Origin: a virus
Taxonomy: Duplodnaviria > Heunggongvirae > Uroviricota > Caudoviricetes
Reading direction: 5' to 3' (one strand)
Length of the DNA stretch: 16,681 nucleotides
IMG/VR virus record: IMGVR_UViG_2541047909_000002
In this document: positions 9,394-9,833 of the stretch, piece by piece
How positions within the stretch are numbered: the stretch's first letter is position 1
Layout: each line of letters begins with the position of its first letter
Translations under genes and position numbers: made by a program
Notes under the pieces: model-generated
The model's input: the letters and a program-made list of their open reading frames with translations, nothing else
What the model was told of the DNA's origin: nothing
The model's database searches: none

Positions 9394-9606
9394 ATGTCTA
9401 ACAAAATGACTGGTTTAGTGAAATGGTTTAACCCTGAAAAAGGTTTTGGTTTCATCACGCCGAAAGATGGCAGCAAAGATGTGTTTGTCCATTTCTCAGC
9501 AATTCAGAGCAACGATTTCAAAACATTAACTGAGAATCAGGAAGTTGAATTTGGTATTGAGAACGGACCTAAAGGTCCTGCCGCTGTTCATGTAGTGGCG
9601 CTTTGA
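9394..9606 (+). CDS. cspI: Cold-shock protein CspI (70 aa)
   Basis: 70-aa product [38 protein letters not shown]...; AT-rich upstream region of about 350 bp consistent with a cold-shock-type leader. Confidence 0.9.
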
Positions 9607-9810
9607 GGTAGACAATATTACAAACCATATTCACTTTAGATGCCCGTGTTGTCATGGTTCCCAGTATAGAACATCATCTTTTGATGTTTCTGACATGAAT
9701 CCTTTCGGGGCAAAATGTATCTTTTGTAAATCAATGATGATTACATTTGATAATATTTCACAATACTTAAATGCCAGCCGTCTGTCGTTGGATTTAAAAA
9801 AGTGAAAATG

Positions 9811-9833
9811 AAGGCTCCTTCGGGAGCTTTTTT
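9811..9833 (+). terminator. Rho-independent terminator
   Basis: Hairpin GCTCC-TTCG-GGAGC followed by TTTTTTGC. Confidence 0.5.

Follow-up and report, generated by a model that had tools for sequence, protein, structure and literature searches.

A reading frame lacking a canonical start behind cspI is best explained as the prophage gene ynfQ, with a predicted near-cognate ATT start

Between the stop codon of a cold-shock gene and an intrinsic terminator, the DNA analysed here (the window, a 16,681-nucleotide stretch filed as the tailed-phage record IMGVR_UViG_2541047909_000002) holds an open frame with two pairs of cysteines and no evident place to begin. The question raised by this locus is whether the frame is the frameshifted remnant of a small zinc-ribbon gene or a gene with non-canonical initiation, the two alternatives left by the original prediction. 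Direct reading and translation bear out the description on which that prediction was built. The frame (9596-9805) opens after a TAG at 9593-9595 and ends at a TGA at 9803-9805, and the 15 codons from the TAG to 9641-9643 include no ATG, GTG or TTG, so that a canonical start is indeed lacking ahead of the first Cys pair. The CxxC...CxxC pattern is present, an ATG at 9640-9642 lies one base out of frame and starts only a 9-codon ORF, and a terminator hairpin with a stem and a T6 tract begins 5-6 nt past the TGA. Two features had been overlooked: an ATT at 9617 with a GAGG 8 nt upstream, and an existing annotation of the frame as ynfQ, of the YmcF family.

The best explanation, to which we give a probability of about 0.93, is that the frame corresponds to ynfQ, a genuine protein-coding gene carried by a Qin-type lambdoid prophage and the prophage copy of ymcF. 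The gene is already known in RefSeq and Pfam; it is therefore not new, and it is not a broken remnant either. Of the two original alternatives, non-canonical initiation is the one favoured by the evidence below, and the frameshifted remnant falls. The features of the locus are the following.

9394-9606, plus strand: cspI, cold-shock protein gene, with its stop TGA at 9604-9606 (ORF list; RefSeq annotation of the identical K-12 stretch)
9605-9608, plus strand: Shine-Dalgarno GAGG of ynfQ, read from the sequence, overlapping the cspI stop (T-GA-GG) and 8 nt before the ATT
9617-9619, plus strand: predicted ATT initiation codon of ynfQ (RefSeq CDS start; aligned codons of 86 loci)
9617-9805, plus strand: ynfQ CDS, YmcF-like small protein, 62 codons plus stop (RefSeq, PF23641, dN/dS)
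9640-9642, plus strand: out-of-frame ATG, incidental, at the junction of Arg AGA and Cys TGC; 9-codon ORF
9641-9652, plus strand: first Cys knuckle CPCC, with C9 and C12 (alignments; Cys kept while TGC/TGT varies)
9716-9727, plus strand: second Cys knuckle CIFC, with C34 and C37 (alignments)
9808-9873, plus strand: ynfR, annotated 21-aa small protein, a neighbour and not part of ynfQ (RefSeq)
9811-9833, plus strand: intrinsic terminator, 8-pair stem AAGGCTCC/GGAGCTTT, UUCG loop, T6 tract

Over positions 9390-9850 the window matches E. coli K-12 at 100% identity, as it does more than 1500 further complete E. coli genomes, and three RefSeq genes are annotated in the matching K-12 stretch: cspI, ynfQ and ynfR. 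The RefSeq CDS of ynfQ corresponds to window positions 9617-9805, with ATT as its first codon and 'cold-shock protein' or 'cold shock small protein YmcF' as its product. When translated with Met as residue 1, the 62-aa YnfQ matches the Pfam family PF23641 (YmcF-like) at 111.8 bits (E = 1.7e-32; residues 1-62 on profile positions 1-62), the curated cut-off of this family being 27 bits. The core CPxCxGSQYR ... NPxGAxCIFCK, with its four cysteines, is present in YnfQ and kept in distant representatives; profile, motif and gene context all place the protein in the YmcF-like family. A database search yielded 135 homologues, most of them named 'cold shock small protein YmcF' or 'cold-shock protein', and those with a named source come from Enterobacterales, the exceptions being a single phage metagenome entry and a single partial sequence with an Aeromonas label, the latter identical to E. 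coli ymcF. Moreover, an exhaustive profile search through 1.84 billion representative proteins matched 42 clusters (50% identity). All the matches covering the core of the family are small free-standing proteins, and two long ones (663 and 430 aa) align, repeatedly, to one short segment only; the search for remote homologues and domain fusions gave no informative fusion among these 42 matches.

Within E. coli, the core gene ymcF, located behind cspG, occurs in 5413 of 5426 complete genomes, and ynfQ, located behind cspI, in about 2150 (~40%). The whole window corresponds to a Qin-type lambdoid prophage, 99.83% identical to the K-12 one between 3375 and 12207 and rearranged outside that range, and the cspI-ynfQ module is also found after the lysis genes of the active lambdoid phages Tritos, 2H10, mEp460 and PhiR42_1. 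The annotation of the gene among phages is uneven: the records PV340562.1, PV340573.1, LR595862.1/NC_049950.1 and LR597641.1 carry an intact ynfQ without any feature there, probably because of the ATT start, Tritos alone annotates it as a cold-shock protein, and HannyBb shows a 'hypothetical protein' feature under the match. Coding sequences identical to those of E. coli ynfQ/ymcF were also found in contigs binned as Veillonella parvula and Mucilaginibacter MAGs (L007, L061) and for a protein labelled Aeromonas hydrophila (P0099), copies which are most likely the result of contamination or mis-binning.

Sequence variants of the gene also occur, with around 570 genomes holding versions 90-99% identical to the 251-base stretch 9590-9840. 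In some E. coli alleles a premature TAA cuts the frame short after codon 48, yet the annotation remains that of a YmcF-family CDS (L003 628-774, NZ_CM148361.1); either the diverged C-terminal tail of ynfQ may be dispensable, or the prophage copies with the premature stop may be decaying. The name of the gene requires some care as well. VanOrsdel et al. in 2018 (PMC6001520, Table 1) gave the name ynfQ to a 37-aa ORF between ydfJ and ydfK, which is now ynfT in RefSeq (window about 15058-15171, minus strand), and their YnfQ data are therefore not applicable to the cspI-linked gene. The latter is still counted among the uncharacterised Qin genes (PMC11551758).

Where does translation of this gene begin? 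The candidate start position was compared in 86 loci from about 20 enterobacterial genera, comprising 80 homologous loci of species-representative genomes (of 277 confirmed), the E. coli loci and the window. In each of them, the start was taken as the codon lying eight codons ahead of the first Cys, equivalent to 9617 in the window, with the following outcome.

ATT: 60 of 86 loci, in most genera
ATG: 21 of 86 loci, in Klebsiella, Raoultella, Enterobacter, Leclercia, Silvania, Citrobacter sedlakii and Shimwellia
ATC: 4 of 86 loci, in Salmonella and Siccibacter
AGT: 1 of 86 loci, with the 5' end replaced by an IS element

The intact ATG-initiated versions that had been proposed as a check thus exist, and all 21 of them encode 62 aa, the same length as YnfQ, and align to the ATT at 9617 without a single indel, which excludes a frameshift. 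A canonical start is wholly absent from the open frame in 26 of the 86 loci and, where upstream canonical codons are present, they occur at variable positions inside the csp coding sequence. An (A/G)AGG Shine-Dalgarno precedes the aligned codon by 5-9 nt in all the loci but the IS-disrupted AGT one; every homologous locus linked to a csp gene has the motif T[AG]AGG at the same position, and the AGG of this motif is invariant between ynfQ and ymcF. Canonical starts aligned in relatives, a Shine-Dalgarno and the lack of a canonical alternative, the marks by which we would recognise a near-cognate AUU start, therefore coincide at ynfQ. As judged from these aligned sequences, ynfQ is predicted to initiate at the near-cognate ATT at 9617. 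Regarding direct evidence, our literature search found no N-terminal peptide or start-site profiling data for AUU initiation of ynfQ, and the gene goes unmentioned in the tetracycline start-site paper. A cold-shock ribosome-profiling study published in Molecular Cell in 2018 is reportedly the primary source for both the ATT start and the cold induction.

The codons that follow the ATT behave as translated ones. Codons 5-8 (I/L-H-F-R) are kept as amino acids while Arg8 is written in six different ways among the homologues (AGA, AGG, CGC, CGT, CGA and CGG), indicating that translation includes the region ahead of the first Cys pair. Pairwise comparisons to the ynfQ of the window gave a median dN/dS of 0.055 (~0.06) and a maximum of 0.13 for the 19 pairs with unsaturated dS; in the remaining ones dS is saturated, with dN of 0.05-0.17. 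The gene is under strong purifying selection. A frame conserved across Enterobacterales under such selection is not a product of chance, and this disposes of the coincidental Cys spacing that the original prediction had named as its refuting case.

The second question raised by the locus is how ribosomes would reach such a weak start codon. The TGA that ends cspI in the window (9604-9606) overlaps with the GAGG at 9605-9608, and a 10-nt gap separates this stop from the ATT. The same arrangement, with the gene directly downstream of a csp gene, was found in 53 of the 86 loci, and in 52 of the 64 ATT/ATC loci a csp stop that overlaps the Shine-Dalgarno (T[AG]AGG) precedes the start by 9-10 nt. 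No adjoining csp ORF was found in 20 of the 21 ATG loci. Upstream of the ATG, what is left of a csp 3' end can still be recognised in Klebsiella and Raoultella, and the sequence in Enterobacter, Leclercia and Silvania is unrelated. However, the ATG loci represent only about two independent lineages, as judged by shared upstream sequence, and there are exceptions (Citrobacter sedlakii, ATG yet coupled; Pseudescherichia, ATT without csp; Atlantibacter, ATT followed by ATG at codon 2), so that the association between start codon and coupling is suggestive, not proven. With this reading of it, the pattern of start codons and csp linkage suggests translational coupling to csp.

We propose that cspI and ynfQ form a two-gene cold-shock transcript ending at the intrinsic terminator, and that csp and ymcF/ynfQ would in general make up such a bicistronic unit. 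Ribosomes could get to the AUU either by Shine-Dalgarno-directed binding or by coupling, and we judge the latter more likely: after terminating 10 nt upstream on the heavily translated cspI, ribosomes would re-start at the AUU, so that the amount of YnfQ would follow CspI translation in a low and fixed proportion. In reporters, AUU initiates at 1-2% of the AUG level (10.1101/063800), and an AUU mRNA is a poor competitor in vitro, especially at low temperature (PMC5499595). Being weak, and at its worst in the cold, a stand-alone AUU would be odd on a cold-induced gene, and coupling would resolve this oddity. The gene has been listed as 'Qin prophage, cold shock induced', and found co-induced with cspI and ynfN after AZT treatment (PMC11228462).

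The stop-to-start distance of 9-10 nt and the stop within the Shine-Dalgarno, kept in 53 loci of many genera, together with the ATG acquired by most of the free-standing copies and the poor performance of stand-alone AUU mRNAs in the cold in vitro (PMC5499595), speak against the strongest alternative, where the AUU is used by ordinary Shine-Dalgarno-directed 30S binding, independently of cspI translation, and the weak codon merely sets a low expression or confers IF3 sensitivity as in infC. This alternative, which we place somewhat short of even odds, has a good GAGG at an 8-nt spacing on its side, as well as the precedent of infC and pcnB, where AUU serves as a stand-alone regulated start (10.1101/063800), and the loci of Pseudescherichia, which retain ATT with AAGGA and no csp upstream. 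It also gains from the lack of a conserved structure that upstream translation could open. An RNA hairpin hiding the ynfQ start was considered as a candidate and rejected, since the single-sequence fold, which pairs the Shine-Dalgarno/stop region with 9633-9643, is not conserved; no conserved RNA structure or covariation was detected at the start region by RNAalifold with 16 csp-linked loci. In the Pseudescherichia loci where csp is missing (L021, L023, L024, L027, L029 and L031, around 1480-1510), an 8-codon mini-ORF (ATG AAA AAA GGA TAC TAT TAT TAC TAA) overlaps the ATT; it is absent from P. vulneris (L051), and its relevance is doubtful.

A more demanding version of the coupling model would make the near-cognate start a functional part of a csp-ymcF coupling device, not an annotation oddity, an idea that we put forward tentatively and consider rather unlikely. 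In such a device, the re-start at AUU or AUC would sidestep the normal barrier against AUU, highest in the cold, the YmcF:Csp ratio would be fixed, and the lineages losing the upstream csp would have had to convert their start to AUG. If true, the YmcF-like family would offer a natural example, repeated in evolution, in which the identity of the start codon follows translational coupling.

It is quite improbable that the gene is real and starts somewhere else. The candidates would be the ATG at 9695, the only canonical start in the frame, with a 36-aa product that lacks the first Cys pair; a second ATT at 9629 (codon 5), likewise near-cognate; or a codon upstream, inside cspI. However, the Met27 encoded at 9695 is not conserved, with R, K, E, S, Q or G in the homologues, and the region upstream of it, both N-terminal cysteines included, is the most conserved part of the protein. 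The ATT at 9629 does not serve as a general start, given that E. coli ymcF has CTC as its codon 5. As for the upstream codons, some Citrobacter loci have an ATG inside the csp 3' end that gives a 70-71-aa product, used by gene callers (P0008, P0010); these loci lack the TAG that in the window (9593-9595) closes the frame right after the ATG at 9590, the two codons (9590-9595, plus strand) deriving from the His-Val codons cATGTAg of the cspI 3' end. Codon 1 stands alone among all these positions in having a suitably spaced Shine-Dalgarno and in alternating with ATG from genus to genus.

The other two readings have next to no probability left. For a frameshifted remnant, a decaying pseudogene whose ATG start was lost by a 1-nt indel near 9640, one may point to the ATG one base out of frame and to the E. 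coli alleles with a stop after codon 48, but this reading is already refuted by the indel-free alignment of the ATG orthologues, and it also clashes with the dN/dS of ~0.06, with a core paralogue that keeps the same ATT arrangement in almost every E. coli genome (5413/5426), and with the nature of the ATG at 9640 as an unconserved by-product of the AGA-TGC codon pair, absent from homologues writing Arg8 as CGN. That there is no protein gene at all, the conserved sequence being a cspI 3' UTR or RNA element with the open frame as its side effect, might be thought from the position between a highly expressed gene and its terminator and from the absent canonical start, but it is likewise refuted by third positions that are saturated while amino acids are kept (Arg8 in six codons), and goes against the existence of free-standing ATG-started orthologues and the lack of conserved RNA secondary structure in the 5' part.

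What kind of protein would ynfQ encode? In the alignment of 28 members, C9, C12 and C37 are invariant and C34 shows one exception, and C11 and H13 vary in distant YmcF-like members, which points to a likely four-Cys site. The AlphaFold2 model obtained with these 28 sequences (mean pLDDT 73) predicts short strands at residues 17-19 and 32-34 and a helix at 44-57, and its best structural matches are weak and all of them zinc ribbons, so that the zinc-ribbon-like label first given to the frame seems a reasonable one for the modelled protein. No significant structural relative, nor a sequence-related solved structure hinting at a function, was found for YnfQ. An AlphaFold-3 model in a 2026 review presents it with a rubredoxin-like topology and a metal site (PMC13348028). 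A Rieske-type iron-sulfur protein was also considered and rejected, because the match is restricted to 14 residues of box II (CP-CHGSQY; E = 0.056, not significant), box I is absent, and His13 is not conserved in distant members. YnfQ probably folds as a small zinc ribbon, with a predicted site binding one metal ion through C9, C12, C34 and C37. As a guess, it could act in cold acclimation as a metal-stabilised adaptor that binds a larger partner, either RNA, the ribosome or another protein.

Downstream of the gene, the terminator hairpin spans 9811-9830 and the T6 tract 9828-9833; folding the 50 nt around them (9796-9845) gave -14.9 kcal/mol (z = -2.5). A hairpin and T tract after the stop were found in several genera with stems such as GGCTCC/GGAGCC, GGCCCC/GGGGCC or AGCTCC/GGAGCT, and at least 31 of 76 distinct downstream tails have a perfect-stem terminator, with 17 different stems in total. 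The neighbouring ynfR begins only 2 nt after the ynfQ stop, and its first eight codons are those of the terminator hairpin, which implies that translation of YnfR needs either read-through of the terminator or a separate transcript; the SPA-tagged YnfR has been detected, and is strongly induced by cold shock (PMC6001520). The next gene, ynfN (9878-10108, plus strand), is an intact ORF of 76 codons in the window, and is flagged as 'frameshifted' in the K-12 record NZ_CP032667.1, 1 nt shorter, a difference possibly sitting in the A7 run at 9881-9887.

With both genes, ynfQ and ymcF, already catalogued in RefSeq and Pfam, the locus carries little weight as a discovery. It stands as a caution, since ATT-started genes are missed by canonical-start searches and by standard gene callers, and most phage records with ynfQ leave the gene unannotated. 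With its predicted start, ynfQ would join the very short list of AUU-started E. coli genes, and YnfQ is conserved, has four cysteines and is expressed along with the major RNA chaperones of cold shock. The residual interest lies in the possible link of the near-cognate start to csp coupling: an ATT behind csp versus an ATG when free-standing makes a cheap and testable hypothesis on translational coupling in the cold.

The closest known system is the core paralogue ymcF, behind cspG of E. coli. Both YmcF and YnfQ have 62 aa, with residues 1-46 about 80% identical and the motif CPCCHGSQYR...GAKCIFCK in common, and both genes show an ATT start 10 nt after the csp stop, the overlap of this stop with the Shine-Dalgarno, and a terminator after their own stop. 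YnfQ differs from YmcF in its diverged C-terminal 16 residues, and ynfQ from ymcF in being prophage-borne behind cspI, in Qin-type and active lambdoid phages, and in its downstream neighbours (ynfR-ynfN versus ymcE). The paralogous cassettes can be written as cspI-ynfQ-(ynfR, ynfN)-gnsB (window 9394-10453) and cspG-ymcF-ymcE-gnsA (core; L002 996-1775), with csp, ymcF/ynfQ and gns as homologous pairs. ynfN was considered as a paralogue of ymcE and discarded, as there is no similarity between them; ymcE overlaps the 3' end of ymcF and its terminator.

Another small Qin-prophage protein, YnfU (56 aa; 7086-7256, minus strand), is encoded between cspB and the lysis genes, in a copy identical to that of K-12. 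Like YnfQ, it is a zinc-knuckle protein with two CxxC motifs (CPNC...CPHC) encoded next to a csp gene, but its gene begins with a canonical codon and is read from the opposite strand. The pairwise comparison of YnfU and YnfQ gave no detectable similarity. The NCBIfam ECs_2282 putative zinc-binding family, which we take to be the family of YnfU, matches YnfQ below its threshold (E = 0.0024; 17.8 bits, cut-off 37). Production of YnfU has been shown by tagging (10.1101/511675). The TFIIE-alpha zinc ribbon and the eukaryotic/archaeal ribosomal zinc-ribbon proteins are the best, although weak, matches of the YnfQ model, with which they share two Cys knuckles flanking short beta strands.

Finally, regarding the start codon, infC and pcnB were the only genes counted as confirmed AUU-started ones in E. 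coli in 2016 (10.1101/063800). Their proteins are unrelated to YnfQ, yet the three genes have in common an AUU start with a Shine-Dalgarno, and a start that alternates with canonical codons in other taxa (10.1101/063800). In infC the AUU serves the autoregulation of IF3, a kind of loop that ynfQ is not known to have. In contrast to both infC and pcnB, ynfQ has its predicted AUU start 10 nt behind the stop codon of an upstream gene, which suggests coupling.
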